From positions 1 to 27,639 of IMG/VR virus record IMGVR_UViG_3300038974_000227: 27,639 nucleotides of DNA. The stretch is one strand, 5' to 3'. Position numbers and translations under genes: made by a program. The DNA is from a virus. Lineage: Duplodnaviria > Caudoviricetes. How positions within the stretch are numbered: position 1 is the first letter of the stretch; every line of letters begins with the position of its first letter. The notes under the pieces were generated by a model. It saw nothing but the letters and a program-made list of their open reading frames with translations. It searched no databases and was not told the origin of the DNA. Shown here piece after piece: positions 1,391-15,876 of the stretch.

Positions 1391-3736
1391 TTATTGAAAA
1401 TATGGATTTTTGCCTGGTTCAAAGACCAAACTGTTTTGCGCCAAAGTTCTGCACTCTGTTTTGTGCGATATAAAATATCCCTCTTTGAACCCGCCGAGTT
1501 TCATAAATCCTTGATACATATTAATAAAATTTACAGCATTGCCGGGATCAAGTGGGCCATCAATTTCATCTGCAAAAAATGTCTCAAAATTCTTTCCTGA
1601 TTTTTCCTTAGAAAGTAATGTCATAGCCAAACGCAAGGCCATCAAGCACCATATTTTCTGACCACCGGAAAGATTATCCAGGAGAATTTCTTCGCCGTCG
1701 TCGGATATAACGATGATATCCAAACATTCTTTCCCTTCGTCATTGATAGTGCGGAATTTCACGGTAAAGAGCGGACCAAACGCCTGAGTCAGAAGATCAT
1801 TCGCAAAAGCCGTAATGATCGGCGCGGCTCCATCAATTTCCATTGCCTGTAAACCGTTTTTCCCGCAGGCGTTTCGTAAGTATGTCCAGTCTGCAATATC
1901 TTGCTGAAGCCTTGACTTTTCGGCGTTGGCCGTTTGCAGTTCCTTCTCGACCGCGGCCATGGATGAAAGTTCGGCTTCCAGCTTCATAATGTTGGCGCGG
2001 GTTTCGTTGAGTTTTGTTTCGAGCACTAATAATTCGTTTGCGCTTTCAGAGATATCTTTGTTTATTAAAGAAATGCGAATGTCTATCTTGGTATCAATCT
2101 GCCTTTCGATATCCGAGAGCGAAGCCTGAGCGTCTTTAATGCTGCCGTCCAGATCGGCTTTGCGGTTTTCCCACTTGACTTTAAGTTCTTTGCCCTTTGT
2201 GGTGTTCTCTTCCATTTGCTTTGTAATCGATTCATATTGAGACTGAGCGACGGCAAGGGCGGTTTTCTTCCCGGCGAGTTCCTTGACTTTATTCAAGTCC
2301 ATTCTGGCAGTGGCAAGGTTTTTACGGTCCTCTGTATTTGTTTCAGTGCGGCCTTTTAAATTGTCCTTGCTCAATCTGAGCGCGTGTTCGTCGGAAGATA
2401 ATTGTTCCTCAATCTCCGCCGTTTCGCGCTCAATCTGTCCGGCGCGTTCTTGTTTCTGCCTGGAAAGATCGGCACATTCAGCCTCTAATTTGGGGAGTTC
2501 TTCTTTTGCTTTCAGCGCGGCGACAATAAAAGAGCACGTTGAGCTTTGACAATCTTTGTCCCGCACTTCGAGCGCGGATAATTGACCATTTCCCTGCTTA
2601 ATCATGTGAACGGTTTGAGCAATGGCGTGTTCAAGGCGCACCAGTTCGGCATCGTTGGCCAGTTCTTTTTTCTTCGCTCTTAAATCCTGCAACCGGCTTT
2701 CAATCTTATGAACCGTGTCCTGAATTTCCGCTATTTCGGCGGTCGTGAGATCAATCGTTTTTGTAAGCAGTTCAATCTTGTTGTTTATTTCGCTTTCTTT
2801 TCCCGCTGCCGAGTTTATTTCATCCGCCTGCGCGAGAAGGGCTTCATTCTCTTTGATCTTCCCCTGTAATTCTTTGTAGGCGTCCCGGAGCGCGTTCAGT
2901 TCGGCGTCGGAGTCTTTCTCTTCCCGCGCCAGCGTGTCTTGAAGTTCTTTTATCCTGGCTTCGATGTTCGCCTTCTGAGACAATAAAACTTCCTGCTTGG
3001 CTTTCTTATCGCGTAACTGTTCAAGTTCGGCCTGATATTCGACGCGCTTCTCTTTCAGTTCGTCCATGGCGCTTTCATGTTCGGCCAGCGTTCCTTTCTC
3101 CCGTGCCAGATTTTCCTTTGTCGTATCAATGCCGGTTTGCTTATAGCCGAGTGCCATAATCTGTTTGTCCACCTGCTCGATCTGTCCGGTGACGGCGGTT
3201 ATTTCATCCTTTGCAGTGGCTTCGTATTCGACGAGTTTATTGAGATTCAGGAATTCTGACAGCAGGGTTTTTAGTTCGCCCGTGGTCATGTCGGATAGCT
3301 TCGTGGCATTCTGAGCGCAAAATACTGAATGGAAGAACATATTCTCAGTGCCGAGCAGTTCGTTTATGTATTTGCTGTATTCCTTTATCTTCCCAGTCGT
3401 CTCCGATTTCGTGGCGTCATTCTTATAAATGAAGCCCTCTGATTTCCCGCTCTGGCAGTCGATCTTTAACAATGTCCGGTAGTGATTGCCGTTATACGAG
3501 AAGGAAAACTCTTTTTCGGAGTTCCTCATAAAAACGTGTTGATAAAGAGCGCCGGAACGTGAAGCCAGTGTTGAATAGGGATGAAGGTTTTCGAGGACGG
3601 TTGACTTCCCGGCACCGTTCATTCCGTCAAATGCGGTCAGTCCTGAGACTGTCGAGAAATCTATGGTTATTTCGTCGAGTCCCAATCCGCGCTTGATTCC
3701 GATAAAACCTTTAAGTCTTAATTTAAAATTGTTCAT
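1391..3736 (-). CDS. SbcC/Rad50-like SMC-family ATPase
   Basis: Walker A GMNGAGKST, long coiled coil with central Cys pair (CQSSTC), signature LSGGQ, Walker B FADEIDG, ISH. Confidence 0.92.
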   Translation of the reverse strand: MNNFKLRLKGFIGIKRGLGLDEITIDFSTVSGLTAFDGMNGAGKSTVLENLHPYSTLASRSGALYQHVFMRNSEKEFSFSYNGNHYRTLLKIDCQSGKSEGFIYKNDATKSETTGKIKEYSKYINELLGTENMFFHSVFCAQNATKLSDMTTGELKTLLSEFLNLNKLVEYEATAKDEITAVTGQIEQVDKQIMALGYKQTGIDTTKENLAREKGTLAEHESAMDELKEKRVEYQAELEQLRDKKAKQEVLLSQKANIEARIKELQDTLAREEKDSDAELNALRDAYKELQGKIKENEALLAQADEINSAAGKESEINNKIELLTKTIDLTTAEIAEIQDTVHKIESRLQDLRAKKKELANDAELVRLEHAIAQTVHMIKQGNGQLSALEVRDKDCQSSTCSFIVAALKAKEELPKLEAECADLSRQKQERAGQIERETAEIEEQLSSDEHALRLSKDNLKGRTETNTEDRKNLATARMDLNKVKELAGKKTALAVAQSQYESITKQMEENTTKGKELKVKWENRKADLDGSIKDAQASLSDIERQIDTKIDIRISLINKDISESANELLVLETKLNETRANIMKLEAELSSMAAVEKELQTANAEKSRLQQDIADWTYLRNACGKNGLQAMEIDGAAPIITAFANDLLTQAFGPLFTVKFRTINDEGKECLDIIVISDDGEEILLDNLSGGQKIWCLMALRLAMTLLSKEKSGKNFETFFADEIDGPLDPGNAVNFINMYQGFMKLGGFKEGYFISHKTECRTLAQNSLVFEPGKNPYFQ

Positions 3737-4914
3737 GCGGCCACCTGTTCCTTTCTTTCGCCAAACTCCAGAAGGTCGGCTTTCTGTAAAACGGATTCAG
3801 ATACGGTTTCACCCCTTAACTCCGCCATGGCCTTGATCTTGTCCCGGAGCGTGTTGACTTTCAGGACGGATTCAGAGCGAACCGTTTGCCGGGGTACGCG
3901 GATCAGGCGGATATCGGCGTCGAGGGCGCCACCGGAAATATAGAACTGTTTGATTTGCTCTTTGTCGATCTTCGCGGCGTCGTCTTGCCATACCGTAATA
4001 TCTGCGCGGACGTATGCGCCATTCAAATCTTCATTGCTGAACGAATAAAGGGCATAACCTAAATCATCAATACTCTTTGATGAAAGGCCATATTCATCTT
4101 TCTCTTCTTCTCTGGCATGGTTTTCGGCGACGCGAATTAACTTCTTTGTCGGCGTCTCGATAAAGCGGGATTCAACCAGTTTTTTCCCATCCAGTGTATG
4201 AATGTAAAAGCCCTTGCGCTCCATTTCGCCCCAATTCAGGGAATAGAGCGAACCGGAATAAAAGGCGCGATCTCCTATCTGCTGAGGCAAATGGATATGA
4301 CCTAGACAAATCAGGTCCGGCTCGGCCAACATCATTGAGTCATAGGGAATATCAATTTCATGCCCTACTAAGACTTGTCCGGTGGAAAGTTTAGAGCCTG
4401 CTACGTTCCAATGGCCCACCAGAATATGAGGCACGTCGGGATATTCTGACGCCCTGGCGCCCATGCCCATAAATAAGCCGTTCATGGCCTGCGTGATTTC
4501 AACATTCGATCCGGCGATATCGCTTTGCGTCTGGAAGAACTGTTTCGTCGGCTGAGGGATAAGGGAGACAATAACCTCATTTCTTATTTTGATCAGATCA
4601 GGCTTTGACGCGACAACTATTTTATGTGCGCCTTGAGCGTAATTGAGGATTTCCGGAGCGGTGCCGTCGTGTGAGGGAGTTCCTAAAACAATCAGGACAG
4701 GGCATTGATTTGCCAACTCTGATACTGTCTTGATAATCAGCTTCGCGCTCTGGCTGTCGAGCTTTATGTCGCGGGAATCAAAACAGTCTCCGGCGATTAC
4801 AGCCAGATCAACTTCTTCCTCAACTGCATTATCAAGCATGAAGCCTAAGCATTTCTCTATTTCCTCTATGTCCTTTTCTCGCGCATGAATATCTGCAAGG
4901 TGTAAAATTTTCAT
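3733..4914 (-). CDS. SbcD/Mre11-like metallophosphoesterase nuclease
   Basis: LHLADIH, IAGDCFD, GTPSHD, LVGH, LGHIH, YSGS motifs; ATGA overlap with SbcC-like gene. Confidence 0.92.
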   Translation of the reverse strand: MKILHLADIHAREKDIEEIEKCLGFMLDNAVEEEVDLAVIAGDCFDSRDIKLDSQSAKLIIKTVSELANQCPVLIVLGTPSHDGTAPEILNYAQGAHKIVVASKPDLIKIRNEVIVSLIPQPTKQFFQTQSDIAGSNVEITQAMNGLFMGMGARASEYPDVPHILVGHWNVAGSKLSTGQVLVGHEIDIPYDSMMLAEPDLICLGHIHLPQQIGDRAFYSGSLYSLNWGEMERKGFYIHTLDGKKLVESRFIETPTKKLIRVAENHAREEEKDEYGLSSKSIDDLGYALYSFSNEDLNGAYVRADITVWQDDAAKIDKEQIKQFYISGGALDADIRLIRVPRQTVRSESVLKVNTLRDKIKAMAELRGETVSESVLQKADLLEFGERKEQVAA

Positions 4915-4931: not shown

Positions 4932-6023
4932 TTAATAAGGTACGTCTTGTTTTGGTTCCGCTCCTTTGTCGGGCAGCGAAAGAAGGTGCTTAAAAATGTC
5001 CACCCGCTTTTCTTCCTTAAAGTCTGTCAGTTTGTTGCACTGGCATTTCTCCATATAGCCAACAAGGTCATAGCCTTTCTGAAATGCCATTTTTGTAAGC
5101 GTTACGCATTGGCTGGTTTCGTCGGAGTTATGGAAGTCAACAACGGCGGATTCTTCCGGTGCCGATTTTGTTTCGTCGCCATTGGTATTATTGGGCGGCT
5201 GTTTGTCGTCGTCCTCTTTGGCAATCGTGGTGATATCAATCGGTTCAGCCGCTTTTACATCTTGGGCGATTGCCGCGGGCCCGTATATGCCAGTCATGGC
5301 CTTAATAGAGGCGTCAACAAACTGCTTTTTTACTGTCGCATCCGTGAAGTCGGGACGAAAGACGATCCGCGCCATAACAAAAGGCTTTTCTAGCTCTTTG
5401 GTTGTGTAGGTTTGCTTTAACCCGAGCAACATCCGGAGAACGCGGTTCATAGCCCCGGCCTCACACAGCTTTAATTTGTTCTTCCGTTTCTGAAGCAGAT
5501 CGCGGTTGACGCAATACTCGACGTACTCAACCTTTTCTTTGTCTGTCGCTGCCCGCTGGCCGTTATCCTTCTTCAGATACTTGGCTTTCATTTCGTAATT
5601 GGTTTTCAGTTCTTCCGCGACAACTTCAAAATCCAGATCATATTCAGCCGAGAAAAAAACCGGCTGCCCGTCCGCTTTCTTGATTCCGCCAACGGCTCTA
5701 TAGGCGATATAGTTTCTGTCCGCGCCGTTATCAATGCGCCTGGATTCTGTAGGGGACCAGATCACGCCCGCGCATACGGACAACTTCATAAGCGCCTGCT
5801 TTGTCGGGCGCCATTTCTTGTTCGGGCCCGGTGCCGCATCGTCGTGTTGGTAAACATCCCCGTTATTGGGATCGGTTGAAAGTTGAACTGTTTCGATTAT
5901 CGGCTGATGGAATTCACTCAACCCCGCAATGTGCGTTGACGGCATGAGCAAATTCGCGCCCTGCTTTTTATACGTCTCTAACTGCGTGGAAATATCTTCC
6001 ACCTTTTTTTCTGCTGCTGTCAT
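4932..6023 (-). CDS. hypothetical protein, candidate recombination / ssDNA-annealing protein
   Basis: 363-aa ORF with AGGAGG RBS directly upstream of sbcDC-like pair; acidic linker and small C-terminal domain; function inferred from context only. Confidence 0.5.
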   Translation of the reverse strand: MTAAEKKVEDISTQLETYKKQGANLLMPSTHIAGLSEFHQPIIETVQLSTDPNNGDVYQHDDAAPGPNKKWRPTKQALMKLSVCAGVIWSPTESRRIDNGADRNYIAYRAVGGIKKADGQPVFFSAEYDLDFEVVAEELKTNYEMKAKYLKKDNGQRAATDKEKVEYVEYCVNRDLLQKRKNKLKLCEAGAMNRVLRMLLGLKQTYTTKELEKPFVMARIVFRPDFTDATVKKQFVDASIKAMTGIYGPAAIAQDVKAAEPIDITTIAKEDDDKQPPNNTNGDETKSAPEESAVVDFHNSDETSQCVTLTKMAFQKGYDLVGYMEKCQCNKLTDFKEEKRVDIFKHLLSLPDKGAEPKQDVPY

Positions 6024-6056
6024 TTTTCCGGCCCTCCTATTGTGTTGTTAAGTTAA

Positions 6057-6326
6057 TTAATTTATTCTCTCTAAAGTATTTTTAAAAATTCCGTGGCCTA
6101 TTTCTTTTGTTTCGATAGTCCATCCCATCGGCTTTAATTTTTCTCGCAAATCGCAAATCCTTTTTGTATGCGACAGAATTACTCTTTCGAGATTCATACT
6201 CAATTCCAATCCGGTTGCCGATCCCCTCAACAACCGCCGGTAGATAACGCCGCATTGAGATTCGGGACTGATGTTCAGTGCCGTTAAATCCGGCGGCGGA
6301 TTGAAATTAAGTTCGGCCTGTGTCAC
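6057..6326 (-). CDS. small winged-HTH-like protein
   Basis: IYRRLLRGSATGLEL...SHTKRICDLREKL...GWTIET pattern; GTG start with GGAGG RBS. Confidence 0.6.
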   Translation of the reverse strand: MTQAELNFNPPPDLTALNISPESQCGVIYRRLLRGSATGLELSMNLERVILSHTKRICDLREKLKPMGWTIETKEIGHGIFKNTLERIN

Positions 6327-6493
6327 TTCGCGACCTCCACCTTAACACTGTCCTTTACCGGCTCCGGCTTGTTCGCCAGCCCGATCAGCAAGAAGAACCC
6401 CACGATCACAACTAATCCGTAAATCACCAGAGCGTGGACTATCTGCGTGATAGTCGGTTGTTCGTATTTGTCTTCGTCTTCGTTTTCAAGCAT
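6323..6493 (-). CDS. 56-aa single-pass membrane protein (not in ORF track)
   Basis: GAGGAGG RBS, ATG 6493; MLENEDEDKYEQPTITQIVHALVIYGLVVIVGFFLLIGLANKPEPVKDSVKVEVAK; GTGA overlap with next gene. Confidence 0.7.
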   Translation of the reverse strand: MLENEDEDKYEQPTITQIVHALVIYGLVVIVGFFLLIGLANKPEPVKDSVKVEVAK

Positions 6494-6540
6494 GTTGGCC
6501 TCCTCATCTTGATACTATTAAAGAACTAAGTATATTTACT

Positions 6541-6614
6541 TTACAACTCGCTAATTTATATTTGTTTATTCGTTTCATTCGGAAAATGCCAACTTGGTAT
6601 ATTATGTGTTATAT
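6541..6614 (+). other. degenerate attC or attI-like left boundary of cassette array
   Basis: TTACAAC ... GTTATAT; core site 6608-6614 is the exact complement of ATATAAC at 6806-6812; interior AT-rich and weakly palindromic. Confidence 0.4.
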
Positions 6615-6800
6615 TTCCTCATGTAATATAGACAACGAAACGGTTTGCCATTTTGCTATTTCTTTATTTTCAAGGTGTTGTTTGAGTAGAGGGGGAATGC
6701 TTGACGTTGGAATTTCAATCAACACAGAAGTATTTTCAATATTACCGCCCATGTTGGCGGCTACTGCATAATTTGATATTGTAGCTATGATTTTAAGCAT
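6609..6800 (-). CDS. cassette ORF, 63-aa hypothetical protein
   Basis: GGGAGG RBS lies inside the attC at 6812-6817; TAA stop lies in the GTTA core site. Confidence 0.7.
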   Translation of the reverse strand: MLKIIATISNYAVAANMGGNIENTSVLIEIPTSSIPPLLKQHLENKEIAKWQTVSLSILHEEI

Positions 6801-6805
6801 AAAAA

Positions 6806-6860
6806 ATATAACCTCCCATTAGAGCGGATCGCTGCGCTACGGCTGATTTTTTCGTTATAT
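6806..6860 (+). mobile_element. attC-like recombination site 1 (55 bp)
   Basis: ATATAAC-CTCCC-ATTAGAGC-GGATCGCTGCGCTACG-GCTGATT-TTTTC-GTTATAT fits R''-L''-L'-R' geometry; shares 28/29 nt with site 2. Confidence 0.75.
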
Positions 6861-7040
6861 TTTAATTAAATGACAAGTTGTCTCGGACTTAATCCAAGGA
6901 GCGCCACCATGAAGACTCATAATATCAACGTAAGAGATGCTTTTATCTTCACTTTGCCGAACAACTATGCCAACACTCATCGGCACACGCTTATTATTCA
7001 CAAACACGGCAGTCTCTACTTTATCTCCAACGTCTATCAT
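6855..7040 (-). CDS. cassette ORF, 61-aa hypothetical protein (SH3/KOW-like pattern)
   Basis: MIDVGDKVE...VGIVV...; TAA stop lies in the GTTA of site 1. Confidence 0.65.
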   Translation of the reverse strand: MIDVGDKVETAVFVNNKRVPMSVGIVVRQSEDKSISYVDIMSLHGGAPWIKSETTCHLIKI

Positions 7041-7071
7041 TTTGTTTCATCTTTCTGCCCTGTTAAAAAAC

Positions 7072-7128
7072 ATACAACAAGGGCAATCCAGCCGATGCGC
7101 TGCGCTCCGGCTGATTTTTTCGTTATCC
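7072..7128 (+). mobile_element. attC-like recombination site 2 (57 bp)
   Basis: ATACAAC-AAGGGC-AATCCAGC-CGATGCGCTGCGCTCCG-GCTGATT-TTTTC-GTTATCC; L'' pairs with L' leaving one extra C, the canonical attC asymmetry. Confidence 0.85.
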
Positions 7129-7187
7129 CAATATCTGCCTTTAGATATATCGATCATGCTGACCTCCAAATTCCACTTATTGCGCTG

Positions 7188-7493
7188 TTATCTGTTAACC
7201 AACTTAAGCCAGTCTTGGAATCCTTTGTCTCCTAATGCGACACACAAAGCATTTAAAAGAATATCAGACAATTCATCCCATCCAATATCGATAGAACTTA
7301 AGTGATGTTTACGATAACTTGCTTTCACAGCCTCCAAAAGTATATTTTCACGGGTATTTATAGCGTGTTCATCACCCTTTTTAATGTAATCAGTATAAAG
7401 AACATAATCACCTTCTTTATCAGTCCACATTCTCAATTCATTACCATCACCCGTAAGGCTTGGTTTAATTTTAGGTGTCCATCGTTCAATCAT
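7188..7493 (-). CDS. cassette ORF, 101-aa hypothetical protein
   Basis: AAGGAG RBS; TAA stop lies in GTTATCTG (7187-7194), complement of CAGATAAC (7517-7524). Confidence 0.7.
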   Translation of the reverse strand: MIERWTPKIKPSLTGDGNELRMWTDKEGDYVLYTDYIKKGDEHAINTRENILLEAVKASYRKHHLSSIDIGWDELSDILLNALCVALGDKGFQDWLKLVNR

Positions 7494-7517
7494 TTTTCAT
7501 TCTCCTTTTAAGAAATC

Positions 7518-7575
7518 AGATAACCAGCTCACTACAGGCGACCGCTACCGCGTCGCCTAACTTCGGTCGTTATTT
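7518..7575 (+). mobile_element. attC-like recombination site 3 (58 bp)
   Basis: AGATAAC-CAGCTC-ACTACAGG-CGACCGCTACCGCGTCG-CCTAACT-TCGGTC-GTTATTT; inner stem AGGCGA/TCGCCT and CGC/GCG. Confidence 0.75.
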
Positions 7576-7761
7576 TCCTAATAATCTTAAAACCCACTTC
7601 GGCGGTGAATGTTTCTTGGGCCGATGAAACTTTGTGTTGGTGGATGTAAAATATATATCGGGACAGCCATACCAACCTAGATTACAGTCTGGGCAATAAG
7701 CATCTACGCTTTCCCCTTCGAGCGATCTTATAAAAGCATGAGTATGTTTACATTTTGTCAT
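7570..7761 (-). CDS. cassette ORF, 63-aa putative Zn-binding protein
   Basis: CKH...CPDC; AAGGA RBS; TAA stop lies in the GTTA of site 3. Confidence 0.65.
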   Translation of the reverse strand: MTKCKHTHAFIRSLEGESVDAYCPDCNLGWYGCPDIYFTSTNTKFHRPKKHSPPKWVLRLLGK

Positions 7762-7830
7762 TTTCGTTCCTTTCCTGGATGGTCTTTCGTTAAATGTTCT
7801 CCGTTATTTTTTTAGCCAATTTTGCATTAT

Positions 7831-7992
7831 TCATACACTCACCCACCTCATAATAATGTTCCATATCGCCAACGTAAAAAACCCCATCAGAAACCCCTTC
7901 CAGTGCCTCCCGATGAACCGGCAAATAGCGTCATCGACCTTGTGCTGGTTTATTTTTGTTACTGCCGTTGCGATTGTGTTGATCGGATTCAT
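7831..7992 (-). CDS. small membrane protein
   Basis: GGAGGG RBS, ATG 7992; C-terminal hydrophobic segment FLMGFFTLAIWNIIM. Confidence 0.6.
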   Translation of the reverse strand: MNPINTIATAVTKINQHKVDDAICRFIGRHWKGFLMGFFTLAIWNIIMRWVSV

Positions 7993-8014
7993 TTTCCCTC
8001 CGAGCTTTTTGTGT

Positions 8015-8040
8015 GGCAGGGGCAACCCCTCACCCCTGCC
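8015..8040 (-). terminator. GC-rich hairpin (possible terminator or processing site)
   Basis: GGCAGGGG/CCCCTGCC inverted repeat; no good U-tract on the minus strand. Confidence 0.3.
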
Positions 8041-8110
8041 TATTGGTTACGTATAGCTCGACCTCCTTTCTGGATTTGTTCAGCACTCTTAATTGCTGCG
8101 CTTCCGCAGG

Positions 8111-8392
8111 TTACACTTCCAGTCTGTCCAAAATGCTGTTCAGCGTGTCCGAAATAATGGACAAAGTGTCGTTACTTTTCTGGATGTCTTCAGCAAGAGG
8201 GGTTGAGTACGAGACTCTTTCCGGGCGCGGTTTTTCTGTTTCACACGGACGCAAAACTTTTGACAGTCTGGCCTGTAAATTAAAAACAAGTTCTTTAACT
8301 GTTTCCGTTCTTTCATTGTTTTCTCCGATCCTCGACAATACTTCTGATTCTCTACAATTTCCCGTCATTATTTTTTCTCCTATTCCCGTCAT
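8111..8392 (-). CDS. hypothetical coiled-coil protein
   Basis: 93-aa ORF with AGGAGG RBS; two alternative starts from a 24-bp duplication. Confidence 0.7.
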   Translation of the reverse strand: MTGIGEKIMTGNCRESEVLSRIGENNERTETVKELVFNLQARLSKVLRPCETEKPRPERVSYSTPLAEDIQKSNDTLSIISDTLNSILDRLEV

Positions 8393-8406
8393 TATTTTTC
8401 CTCCTA
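8359..8406. repeat. 24-bp tandem duplication of RBS plus start codon
   Basis: TTCCCGTCATTATTTTTTCTCCTA / TTCCCGTCATTATTTTTCCTCCTA (1 mismatch). Confidence 0.9.
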
Positions 8407-8431
8407 AGTTTTATTTTCTTAATACTGGTTC

Positions 8432-8579
8432 TGGTGGCCGCAGCAGGATTTGATACCTGCATGATCGTCGGCAAGTAAGGAAGTGACGATCTCCTCGAAT
8501 TAGGCCATTCGGTTACTGATTTGTTCACCTGTGCCTCCTTACACTCCCGAAAGCGTCTCTACTCTTCCGCCACACGGCC
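8432..8579 (-). ncRNA. 148-nt tRNA-like RNA with expanded central domain and no canonical anticodon arm
   Basis: acceptor stem GGCCGTG/TGCGGCC + ACCA; D-arm-like TGGCGGAAGAGTAGAGACGC; T arm GCAGG-TATCAAAT-CCTGC; ~90 nt between D and T arms. Confidence 0.8.
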
Positions 8580-8782
8580 ATGTTTTAAAAGATCGCTTGC
8601 CCCAGGATCGCGGACTTGCCGCCGTGTTTCCCCTTCTGCTTTTGCTCTGGCCTTTTGTCGGGTGCGTAGCTTTAAGGCATCTGTCCTCTGCTCGTAAGTC
8701 AGAGCGTGCCGCCCGTTGCCATTGCTGCATGTGGGCTTTTGCTTTGTTGCTATATCGCTACCGCTTGCGCGGTGAGTGAACG

Positions 8783-9604
8783 TCAATAACCAATCAATTC
8801 ATTAATTTTATTGATTGTGTTTTTTTGTTTAGTGTAAAAGAAATCTTGTCCAGCCAGCGTATGCCTGACAACGGAAATTTTATTTCCAGTTATATGGTGC
8901 ATAAGACAGGTTAAAGCATTTTGAGAGACAATACTTCTTTCCGAACCACCAATTCTAACATTGTCAATTCGTCTCAACATATAATTTCTGAATGCTAAAA
9001 TAGGATTTCCAGCGGTAAGATTTTCACCGTTGAAATATTTTATCTCAAAGTCAATCACTTCATTGAAATAGCATTTCGCGGCGAAGGTAAAGGCGGATAG
9101 CGCGGGGGAATACATCAACGATCTAATTAAAGTTTTATTCTCAATAACCGCGTCGATTTCCTTTCTGTAAATATCCATGACTTTATTTACCAAACCAAAT
9201 GATGTTTTGCCGATATGCTTATTGCCGGTGCAAATTGTTATCAATCCACGCACTATTGCGGAACGTAAATTCCCGTTATCCACTCCGATAAGATGTAAAT
9301 TATCGCCAACGCCTCTTAACTTTCCCGTATCTACTGTTAATTGTGATTCAATGGGAAGCTCGGTGACAACGAGCATTTCGAGAGTAACGCCTGATTGAAT
9401 AATTGCCCAAAGCCGATGTTGTCCGTCAATCAATACGCCGTTTATATCAAAACCAATTCCCTGATTATTTGGTCTCCATAAACCAAGCCTCATATCCCTT
9501 GCGTAACAATCAACGGTTAATTGATATACCGGTCTATTGTGGGTATTAGAGGACAGCATTTTTTCTGCGATCTTCGGAGTTATAAGCATTGTTTTTATTT
9601 TCAT
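8783..9604 (-). CDS. ParB/Srx-like N-terminal domain protein
   Basis: ITPKIAEKML..NTHNR, LIDGQHRLWAI, VDTGKLR; ATG 9604 with GGGAGG RBS; AT-rich. Confidence 0.75.
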   Translation of the reverse strand: MKIKTMLITPKIAEKMLSSNTHNRPVYQLTVDCYARDMRLGLWRPNNQGIGFDINGVLIDGQHRLWAIIQSGVTLEMLVVTELPIESQLTVDTGKLRGVGDNLHLIGVDNGNLRSAIVRGLITICTGNKHIGKTSFGLVNKVMDIYRKEIDAVIENKTLIRSLMYSPALSAFTFAAKCYFNEVIDFEIKYFNGENLTAGNPILAFRNYMLRRIDNVRIGGSERSIVSQNALTCLMHHITGNKISVVRHTLAGQDFFYTKQKNTINKINELIGY

Positions 9605-10221: not shown

Positions 10222-10249
10222 ATTATACACTTTTGATATTACCTGTCAA
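10222..10249 (-). promoter_or_regulatory. leftward sigma70 promoter
   Basis: TTGACA (10249-10244), 16 bp, TATAAT (10227-10222). Confidence 0.8.
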
Positions 10250-12173: not shown

Positions 12174-12265
12174 AAGTGTCCGACAAATATCTTAGAGACC
12201 TTTTACGCAAAGAAAAGCTCATGGCGGAGTTGACGCGGTTAGGGGTACGGGGGTGGCGCCCTTGA
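12170..12265 (+). CDS. 31-aa hypothetical peptide (not in ORF track)
   Basis: GAGGA RBS; ATGA overlap upstream and TTGA overlap with C5-MTase start; MKVSDKYLRDLLRKEKLMAELTRLGVRGWRP. Confidence 0.45.
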   Translation: MKVSDKYLRDLLRKEKLMAELTRLGVRGWRP

Positions 12266-13245
12266 AAGTCGGTTCTTTATTTACCGGCATCGGCGGCTTT
12301 GATTTAGGTTTTGAACGTGCCGGAATGGAAATAGCGTGGCAGGTTGAAATAGATGAATTTTGCAACAAGGTTTTAGCCAAACATTGGCCGAATGTAAAAA
12401 GGTTTAAAGATGTCAAAACAGTTAGCGGAAAAGAACTTGAACCAGTCGACCTTCTTTGCGGAGGGGTACCTTGCCAGCCGGCCAGTTGCGCCGGGAAGCG
12501 TCGAGGCACAAAAGATGACCGTTGGCTCTGGAAAGAGCCTTTTAGAATCATTGCCGAACTCGACCCGAAACCAAAGTGGTGCGTCTTTGAGAATGTTAGA
12601 GGATTGCTTACTCTTGAAAACGGATTGGTATTCGACAATCTGCTTTCTGAATTGGAAAATCTTGGCTACGAAACAAGGACGTTTTGTCTTCCAGCTTGCG
12701 CCGTCAATGCCCCGCACAGAAGGGATAGAGTCTGGATTGTTGCGAACTCCAGATGCGAACATGGAGAGAGGGCAGCGGTCAGAGGAGAACCTAATAGACC
12801 GTTATCATGTGAGGAAAGCGCCTCTTTGCTTAAACGACCAATTAGCAATGATGGACAAGGGATTGCTCCCGACACCGGAAGGAACATCAGCGGGGCCGGA
12901 TTATTCGAAACTGGAACGGAGCAAAACGGGAATAAGCCTTCAAACAGCGGTGGGGATGTGTCCGACTGCCCGTTCATCGGATTACAAGGGCGCATCAAAA
13001 CAGTACGAGAAGAAGGGCAGAAATCCCATGACGAACAGTTGCATGGATGCCGTGGAGAATGGTCTGAACCGTGGCTTGAAGTTGCAACCCGCCTTTGTGG
13101 AATACCTCATGGGGTATCCGAAGAATTATACAAACTTGAAACTTCCGACAGAGTGGCAAGGCTAAAGGCACTAGGAAACGCAATAGTGCCACAAATACCA
13201 GAGATTTTAGGCAGGGCGATTATGGGGATAGACCATGAGACTTAA
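12262..13245 (+). CDS. C5-cytosine DNA methyltransferase, catalytic (alpha) chain lacking motif IX
   Basis: motif I LFTGIGG, IV GGVPCQ, VI ENV, VIII APHRRDRVW, X RLKALGNAIVP; start TTG 12262 or GTG 12253. Confidence 0.92.
   Translation: MKVGSLFTGIGGFDLGFERAGMEIAWQVEIDEFCNKVLAKHWPNVKRFKDVKTVSGKELEPVDLLCGGVPCQPASCAGKRRGTKDDRWLWKEPFRIIAELDPKPKWCVFENVRGLLTLENGLVFDNLLSELENLGYETRTFCLPACAVNAPHRRDRVWIVANSRCEHGERAAVRGEPNRPLSCEESASLLKRPISNDGQGIAPDTGRNISGAGLFETGTEQNGNKPSNSGGDVSDCPFIGLQGRIKTVREEGQKSHDEQLHGCRGEWSEPWLEVATRLCGIPHGVSEELYKLETSDRVARLKALGNAIVPQIPEILGRAIMGIDHET
12410..13165 (+). CDS. C5-methyltransferase beta chain in overlapping +1 frame (TRD repeats + motif IX)
   Basis: LLRTPDA / LLPTP / MCPTARSSDYKG repeats and LQPAFVEYLMGYPKNYT (motif IX); 251 codons open inside another gene. 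Confidence 0.8.
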   Translation: MSKQLAEKNLNQSTFFAEGYLASRPVAPGSVEAQKMTVGSGKSLLESLPNSTRNQSGASLRMLEDCLLLKTDWYSTICFLNWKILATKQGRFVFQLAPSMPRTEGIESGLLRTPDANMERGQRSEENLIDRYHVRKAPLCLNDQLAMMDKGLLPTPEGTSAGPDYSKLERSKTGISLQTAVGMCPTARSSDYKGASKQYEKKGRNPMTNSCMDAVENGLNRGLKLQPAFVEYLMGYPKNYTNLKLPTEWQG

Positions 13246-15472: not shown

Positions 15473-15658
15473 ATGAATAAAGTAATTTTGATTGGTCGAT
15501 TGGGTAAAGATCCGGATGTTAAATACACGCCAGCAGGGGACATGGTAACGACGTTTTCTGTCGCCACGGACGAAAGTTACAAAAACCGTGAAGGCGAAAA
15601 GGTCCAGAAAACAGAATGGCATAAGATTGTCGCCTGGGGAAAGCTGGCTGAAAAATGA
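15473..15658 (+). pseudogene. ssb: truncated single-stranded DNA-binding protein (N-terminal half of OB fold)
   Basis: MNKVILIGRLGKDPDVKYT...FSVAT...TEWHKIVAWGKLAE then stop at residue 61. Confidence 0.85.
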
Positions 15659-15876
15659 AAAATAAATATAAAACACAAGATCAGATAATGATTAATGCCT
15701 TAAGAGAAATGAGTGGCCATAGCATACACGATAAAAAACGCTGGCTTCAATCAAGAACTTTATATGCCAAAAGGATTGCAGAGAAGAAAAAGCAAGAAAG
15801 AGAAAATAATAAGGCTATCGAGGAATTTTTAAACAACGGTGGCAAGATTACACTTTGTCCACCAAAAATAAATTAA
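15655..15876 (+). CDS. hypothetical protein
   Basis: C-terminal IEEFLNNGGKITLCP motif typical of small phage proteins. Confidence 0.6.
   Translation: MKNKYKTQDQIMINALREMSGHSIHDKKRWLQSRTLYAKRIAEKKKQERENNKAIEEFLNNGGKITLCPPKIN

Follow-up and report, generated by a model that had tools for sequence, protein, structure and literature searches.

Clusters of attC sites without an integron integrase (CALINs) have already been published from phages. Qi et al. 2023 (PMC9892861) report 17 phage CALINs and activity of IntI1 on five of six phage attC sites, and the first-pass annotation of the DNA analyzed here, which took such clusters to be known mainly from chromosomes and plasmids, therefore understates the literature. 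The published clusters resemble the present locus in having clustered attC sites without intI and a cargo of small genes and DNA methyltransferases (found here in the relatives L273, L071 and L025). The text of that paper makes no mention of genes inverted to attC or of variation among related phages, and its figures or Dryad annotations may show orientation; attI is reported there solely for a Shewanella prophage that carries a complete integron, not for integrase-less phage early operons. Two of the 17 published clusters were checked in this work, and their genes are forward in TJE1 and inverted in MW202573. The chromosomal integrons of Syntrophales and Deltaproteobacteria share with our locus the attC family, two attI motifs and the core-complementarity rule. 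In contrast to them, the locus has no intI, its genes are antisense to attC, its promoter is at the end far from attI, its cassettes are about half the size and its cargo is phage-type. Insertion at attG sites, which generates SALINs (Loot et al., 10.1101/2022.09.11.507474), is related in that IntI acts at GWT sites outside an integron, a possible entry route into phage, and in that TAA-C stop codons read G|TTA on the other strand; the insertions described there are scattered, whereas fixed attI-like docking sites are filled repeatedly here. Cassettes of the delta-attI type (PMC12901181) compare with a 65-nt unit of our locus, which ends in a short attI instead of an attC and recurs behind different attC sites. 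Those described are resistance cassettes of integrons in classes 1 and 2, with forward genes, whereas the 65-nt unit contains the stub of an inverted gene. Our literature search, with most subscription papers outside its coverage, returned no publication on inverted or attI-headed phage arrays.

We analyzed a whole virus record of 27.6 kb (the window), which corresponds to about 46% of a genome. The locus it contains is a variant of the phage CALINs with two host-type attI-like sites and reversed polarity. Our preferred reading, to which we assign a probability of about three in four, is an integrase-less integron platform in which an early operon of the phage contains two attI-like sites and three attC cassettes in backward orientation, and a host IntI likely inserts and excises cassettes. 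The phage context recognized in the first-pass annotation holds: PHROG and Pfam name a terminase, portal and major head protein, SbcC/SbcD-like proteins, NinB, methylases, a replication initiator and an HTH regulator among the 48 ORFs. Positions 5500-9000 had no match among 50,697 GenBank phages, and an Rfam scan returned nothing at E<=1. The features of the locus are listed in Table 1.

Table 1. Features of the inverted cassette array and its surroundings (positions in the window).
Feature	Position	Strand	Remarks
Resident early gene, 56 aa	6323..6493	-	left flank of array; homologs adjoin array in relatives
attI-like site B	6588..6614	+	crossover G|TT 6608/6609; similarity to other phages reaches ~6501
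Cassette 1, 246 bp	6609..6854	+	inverted 63-aa gene + attC1; core/R'' match, model
63-aa ORF	6609..6800	-	no family; stop in G|TTA core; ribosome-site-like GGAGG inside attC1
attC1	6806..6860	+ (top strand)	two L-box mismatches
Cassette 2, 268 bp	6855..7122	+	inverted 61-aa gene + attC2; 98.6% identity of gene region with L081 and L272
61-aa ORF	6855..7040	-	no family; stop in G|TTA core
attC2	7072..7128	+ (top strand)	canonical; L'' of 8 nt with one extra C; L-box pairing 7/7
65-nt unit	7123..7187	+	5' stub of a further inverted gene together with its ribosome site and attI-like site A
attI-like site A	7166..7193	+	crossover G|TT 7187/7188; motif found before first cassette beside host IntI
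Cassette 3, 382 bp	7188..7569	+	inverted 101-aa gene + attC3; X6 contig joins 7186 to 7569
101-aa ORF	7188..7493	-	20 homologs, including one Smithella-named DUF551 protein
attC3	7518..7575	+ (top strand)	family common to L090 site; L box with one mismatch and one wobble
63-aa ORF after attC3	7570..7761	-	ends in G|TTA of attC3; no own attC detected
Resident 64-aa ORF (53 aa from ATG)	7831..8025	-	right flank; stop in G|TTA of last attC in several relatives
Candidate leftward early promoter	10222..10249	-	perfect (12/12) sigma-70-type consensus match only; reads into cassette genes

We trained a covariance model on the bottom strands of 29 bacterial attC sites, each preceded by a forward gene at least 80 aa long, and excluded sites that matched our own search pattern. 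Over the whole 27.6 kb the model found exactly three sites, all on the minus strand: attC2 at 48.8 bits (E 1e-10), attC1 at 27.8 bits (E 3e-5) and attC3 at 26.8 bits (E 6e-5), with the scores of sites 1 and 2 partly circular because the training set belongs to their attC family. The next-best scores were 16 bits (site 2, opposite strand) and then 14.3 bits elsewhere in the window. The three palindromes proposed as attC sites at first pass are real attC sites, the only ones found by a model of bacterial origin, at 27-49 bits and with exactly the same boundaries. Plain folding energy is weak (z of -0.5 to -2.5 against shuffles) and does not by itself set the sites apart. All three have the imperfect palindrome R''-L''-L'-R' with AAC and GTT ends and an extrahelical base in L'', in canonical form at site 2 and degenerate at sites 1 and 3. 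The likeness of sites 1 and 2 reported at first pass amounts to 28 of 29 nt in common, and attC1 is probably chimeric, because its left arm resembles a site in L011 and its right arm resembles attC2. The left core of each unit was said to complement its own right-hand R'', and it does so at 9/9 positions in unit 1, 6/7 in unit 2 (7/7 in relatives) and 8/8 in unit 3; out of 3000 shuffles, 36 contain the exact 9-nt core word of unit 1 and 18 the exact 8-nt core word of unit 3. Having several attC sites close together (at least two within a few kb are required) and no intI in the vicinity, the locus qualifies as a CALIN. Of the further parts of a complete integron, an attI is present at the array head, its function being predicted from the motif, and an intI gene is absent from this window of about 46% of a genome.

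Three other assignments were tried and rejected. Taking the minus strand as the attC top strand is ruled out by the extra base in L'', by the model trained on bacterial sites and by the completeness of the cassettes. A fourth attC at 6541-6614 has no model match and corresponds to attI-like site B, and a candidate at 8775-8833 from our own pattern scanner, which missed sites 1 and 3, reached only 8 bits by model. As a separate matter, attC bottom strands are frequently in frame with phage ORFs and lengthen them at the N terminus (L008:1907-1963, L011, L014), which may mislead gene callers.

Each cassette gene is inverted relative to its own attC: the top strand of attC is the plus strand, the ORFs are encoded on the minus strand, and the TAA stop codon falls in the G|TTA core. 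Cassette genes usually lie upstream of attC and on its top strand; all three here are antisense. The attC architecture described in the first-pass annotation stands, but that description was incomplete, as it stated neither the gene inversion nor the two attI-like sites. No family was found for the four ORFs of the array in Pfam, PHROG or NCBIfam. A 24-aa gene stub had no Pfam match either, and it may resemble Gp37/Gp68 proteins. Next to the right-flank gene, positions 7762-7830 hold the 5' stub of another inverted gene, which is full length (63-67 aa) in L274, and further joints near it end at 7805 and 7815 (runs X5, X9 and X11).

The array is headed by two putative docking sites that match the attI motifs of different IntI clades in the likely host order. 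In a chromosomal integron (L284, IntI of 426 bits), the sequence that precedes the first cassette matches the 20 nt before the G|TT at 7187 (motif A), and positions 6588-6610 of the window correspond with two mismatches to motif B, which heads arrays in other viral contigs. We examined 31 host IntI loci and used the 29 with at least 150 nt upstream for motif counts. Motif A is found beside IntI in eight of these and motif B in seven others; shuffled sequences gave 0.002 and 0 per locus, respectively. Motif A goes mainly with IntIs at least 79% identical to that of L284, motif B with a longer IntI clade. In L171, L181 and L306 (A) and in L316 and L143 (B), the first attC is complementary to the core that follows the motif. 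An attI is reported to be read only by its cognate integrase (PMC2095811). Viral scans returned 19 distinct A sites and 12 B sites. Among the 12 viral A sites with a detected attC, the core agrees with the first R'' at 7/7 positions in ten and at 6/7 in two. An inverted ORF ends within 9 nt of 13 of the 19 A sites, five have a forward ORF and one is crossed by an inverted gene, while nine B sites are inverted and three are without resolved orientation.

Some further features of these sites were observed. In host integrons of one IntI clade, the stretch between intI and attI contains the attI motif two or three times in inverted form (L284:2612-2785; also L173, L305 and L181), and the phage site resembles the inverted copy as well as it resembles attI itself. 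Two attI-like sites are also present in the viral contigs L338, L332 and L321, the last of which has forward genes.

Inversion is general within the sampled viral cassettes. We scanned IMG/VR (15 and at least 123 loci) and GTDB genomes (at least 129 loci); the loci listed contain 98 viral and 59 genome cassettes between adjacent sites, or 78 and 47 after removal of duplicates and of cores below 6/7, and orientation was called by the longest ORF. Among the loci listed, 52 of the 78 viral cassettes are inverted, 17 forward and 9 unclear (29, 6 and 9 when counted by locus, 44 loci), as compared with 4 inverted, 33 forward and 10 unclear of the 47 genome cassettes (1, 23 and 3 of 27 loci); these loci are related and were picked by motif, and the counts are not independent events. 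All four inverted genome cassettes come from a single locus that resembles phage DNA (L142). This inverted array, with its phage-like neighbor genes, is in a Bacteroidales genome bin and is possibly a mis-binned phage contig. In bacteria, a forward gene precedes 41 of 51 sites of the same attC family. The viral polarity is not absolute, as TJE1, L321 and L325 are forward phage arrays and 5/19 viral motif-A sites are followed by forward genes.

These comparisons bear on whether the array is a passive relic, left over from a host integron fragment that the phage took up. Such an origin would agree with the host-like attC family and both host-like attI motifs, and prophage capture of chromosomal integron pieces has been described (PMC9892861). 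However, host cassettes are forward and larger (median 556 bp vs 259 bp in viruses), whereas the genes in phage arrays are phage-type, co-oriented with the operon and different among relatives. PHROG matches were obtained for 11 of 68 inverted candidate ORFs and 0 of 38 forward ones, and include Lar-like proteins, methyltransferases and unknowns. The three cassette genes of the window had no match in any bacterial locus retrieved. The relic reading is already largely refuted and we regard it as very improbable.

The array sits in a leftward run of small genes. GC skew turns at about 10.5 kb, which is the point of transcription divergence, and does not locate the origin. A search for a Pc-type promoter gave plus-strand consensus matches at 6509-6562, which would be antisense to the cassette genes (15 found vs 12 expected). 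With the candidate phage promoter directed toward attI, expression would be limited to antisense cassettes, and selection would therefore favor an inverted, phage-type cassette pool.

The gain and loss of genes at G|TT among related phages anticipated at first pass was found when contigs of eight public runs, of which X1 may be the source, were aligned to the locus and relatives were compared. A contig from another study (X6) lacks the third cassette gene and attC3 exactly at G|TT, with five shared letters at the junction. It belongs to a relative with 88% likeness, has a short side of 37 letters and runs on to 8447 with 11 differences. Cassette 2 lies between different neighbors in L081 and L272, and the 65-nt unit follows a different attC in L276 and L328. 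Mobility of cassette 1 is indicated only indirectly, by a 247-nt X5 contig that spans 6608-6854, where the contig ends, and by other sequence at 6612. Thirteen different sequences follow site A (in the window, L141/L332, L270, two in L272, two in L273, L276, L279, L332, L333, X6 and X10). A metagenome search returned 13 relatives of the right-flank gene, and the ten that were mapped all have model-supported sites with other cargo. Three cassettes of L008 are missing in L049, and a relative identified by a 363-aa gene (L267) has no array within the 11 kb examined. Another X5 contig joins 6481 to 7831, which places the 56-aa flank gene directly next to the right-flank gene with no array; its short side of 20 letters makes it weak evidence alone. 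Circular cassette junctions, also sought after the first pass, did not appear among the listed contig joints, and contigs drop rare forms.

The same data contain junctions off the core: one X9 junction is 13 nt past G|TT, several attC sites end in A|TT, the attC of cassette 2 differs in its right half between phages, and the longer source form of the 65-nt unit has T where G is expected at the join. It could be argued from these, from the chimeric attC1 and from the NinB- and SbcCD-like genes of the phage that IntI acted in the past and that present variation arises by homologous recombination or slippage between similar hairpins or leaders, the sites now acting as boundaries of mosaic segments and as ribosome sites; slippage has been described as a way in which short cassettes are lost without integrase (PMC5371416). 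This explanation is unlikely in our view, as many unrelated genes have the attI G|TT as their exact starting point, and their cores agree with the attC of the same cassette. Only 3-5 letters are shared at these starts, a pattern that requires site-specific insertion, at least recently.

One relative, L273 (reverse complement 945-2493), has two attI-A sites, with homologs of the resident HTH gene and of the 56-aa flank gene between the attC and the second attI. This suggests a segment like a cassette made from resident genes.

The host order is likely Syntrophales. Among the 79 genome loci listed for this attC motif, the names Smithella, Syntrophus, Syntrophaceae or Syntrophales account for 28 and other deltaproteobacteria for 33, and IntI is above the cut-off in 44 of 121 genomes of the Syntrophales order. 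A Syntrophaceae bin (G006) holds a contig, L141, with the same flank gene and with 7123-7195 at 100%; binning of phage contigs can err, and this bin is less credible as the cognate host because its IntI shows neither motif A nor motif B. We also searched for integrases in 20 viral records, 19 of which were picked for their sites and one of which (L267) is the relative without an array. The IntI cut-off was reached in none of them (ten searched with PF00589 and ten with the IntI family). The statement made at first pass that the window has no integron integrase agrees with our search of its ORFs, a window of about 46% of a genome. Because IntI was found neither in the window nor in these records, host IntI acting in trans is the simplest reading, and we infer that it is the likely enzyme. 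Integrases are reported to be under SOS control (PMC3375312).

A phage tyrosine recombinase, either Xer-like or a prophage integrase, might instead recombine these integron-type sites, encoded in the missing half of the genome or by a co-infecting phage. The window is only 46% complete, a complete relative has a phage integrase, and in L318 a Xer-like recombinase of 278 aa (3678-4514) lies some 1.2 kb away from an attI-A site at the head of eight inverted attC units. We consider this explanation quite improbable. Three array-bearing viral records that are complete or nearly so (99-100%) have no PF00589 match and no tyrosine recombinase, only 3 of the 20 viral records have one at all, and both docking sites track specific host IntI clades. 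The Xer-like protein of L318 scored 52 bits against 265, below the IntI cut-off.

Under the preferred reading, which invokes host IntI, the integrase would act during infection or lysogeny on the folded attC bottom strand of an incoming circle, which is the coding strand, and would recombine it with the phage attI. New cassettes would then land at the promoter-distal end, and homology-driven exchange inside similar hairpins would likely add mosaicism. The proposal of the first-pass annotation that attC recombination shuffles accessory early genes is supported by the attC anatomy, by the lack of IntI and by gain and loss at G|TT; the identity of the enzyme is deduced indirectly.

A broader version of this reading is more doubtful and we offer it tentatively. 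Phages may run reverse-polarity integrons on the host integrase with a private pool of phage-gene cassettes, of which the L273 segment would be one in the making. More speculatively, crossovers at stop codons (TAA-C/G|TTA) might create cassettes, given that attG insertion and off-site excision have been described (10.1101/2022.09.11.507474), and polarity might silence host cassettes, including anti-phage ones, in the phage and phage cassettes in the host. Integrons are reported to be stores of anti-phage genes (10.1101/2024.07.02.601719, 10.1101/2024.07.02.601686), and use of IntI by both phage and host would therefore bear on phage-host conflict. If the preferred reading is true, early-gene mosaicism in phages has a site-specific route that depends on a host enzyme, and integron biology gains a second cassette pool of opposite polarity. 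Since many related phages have empty, filled or part-filled sites, and cassettes are built from phage-type genes, the origin of cassettes can be tested by comparative analysis. Software that assumes a gene ahead of attC and on its strand would assign such cassettes wrongly.

A few other features of the window lie outside the array. Positions 8359-8406 contain a 24-nt tandem duplication, and a second variable spot is found at 8420-8660, where 8462-8552/8564 is skipped or replaced in many contigs. Two overlapping ORFs on the same strand but in different frames (12253-13245 and 12410-13165) both match DNA methyltransferase families. At 15473-15876, an SSB match is confined to a 61-aa ORF; a 73-aa ORF comes after it, and the two may represent a split gene.
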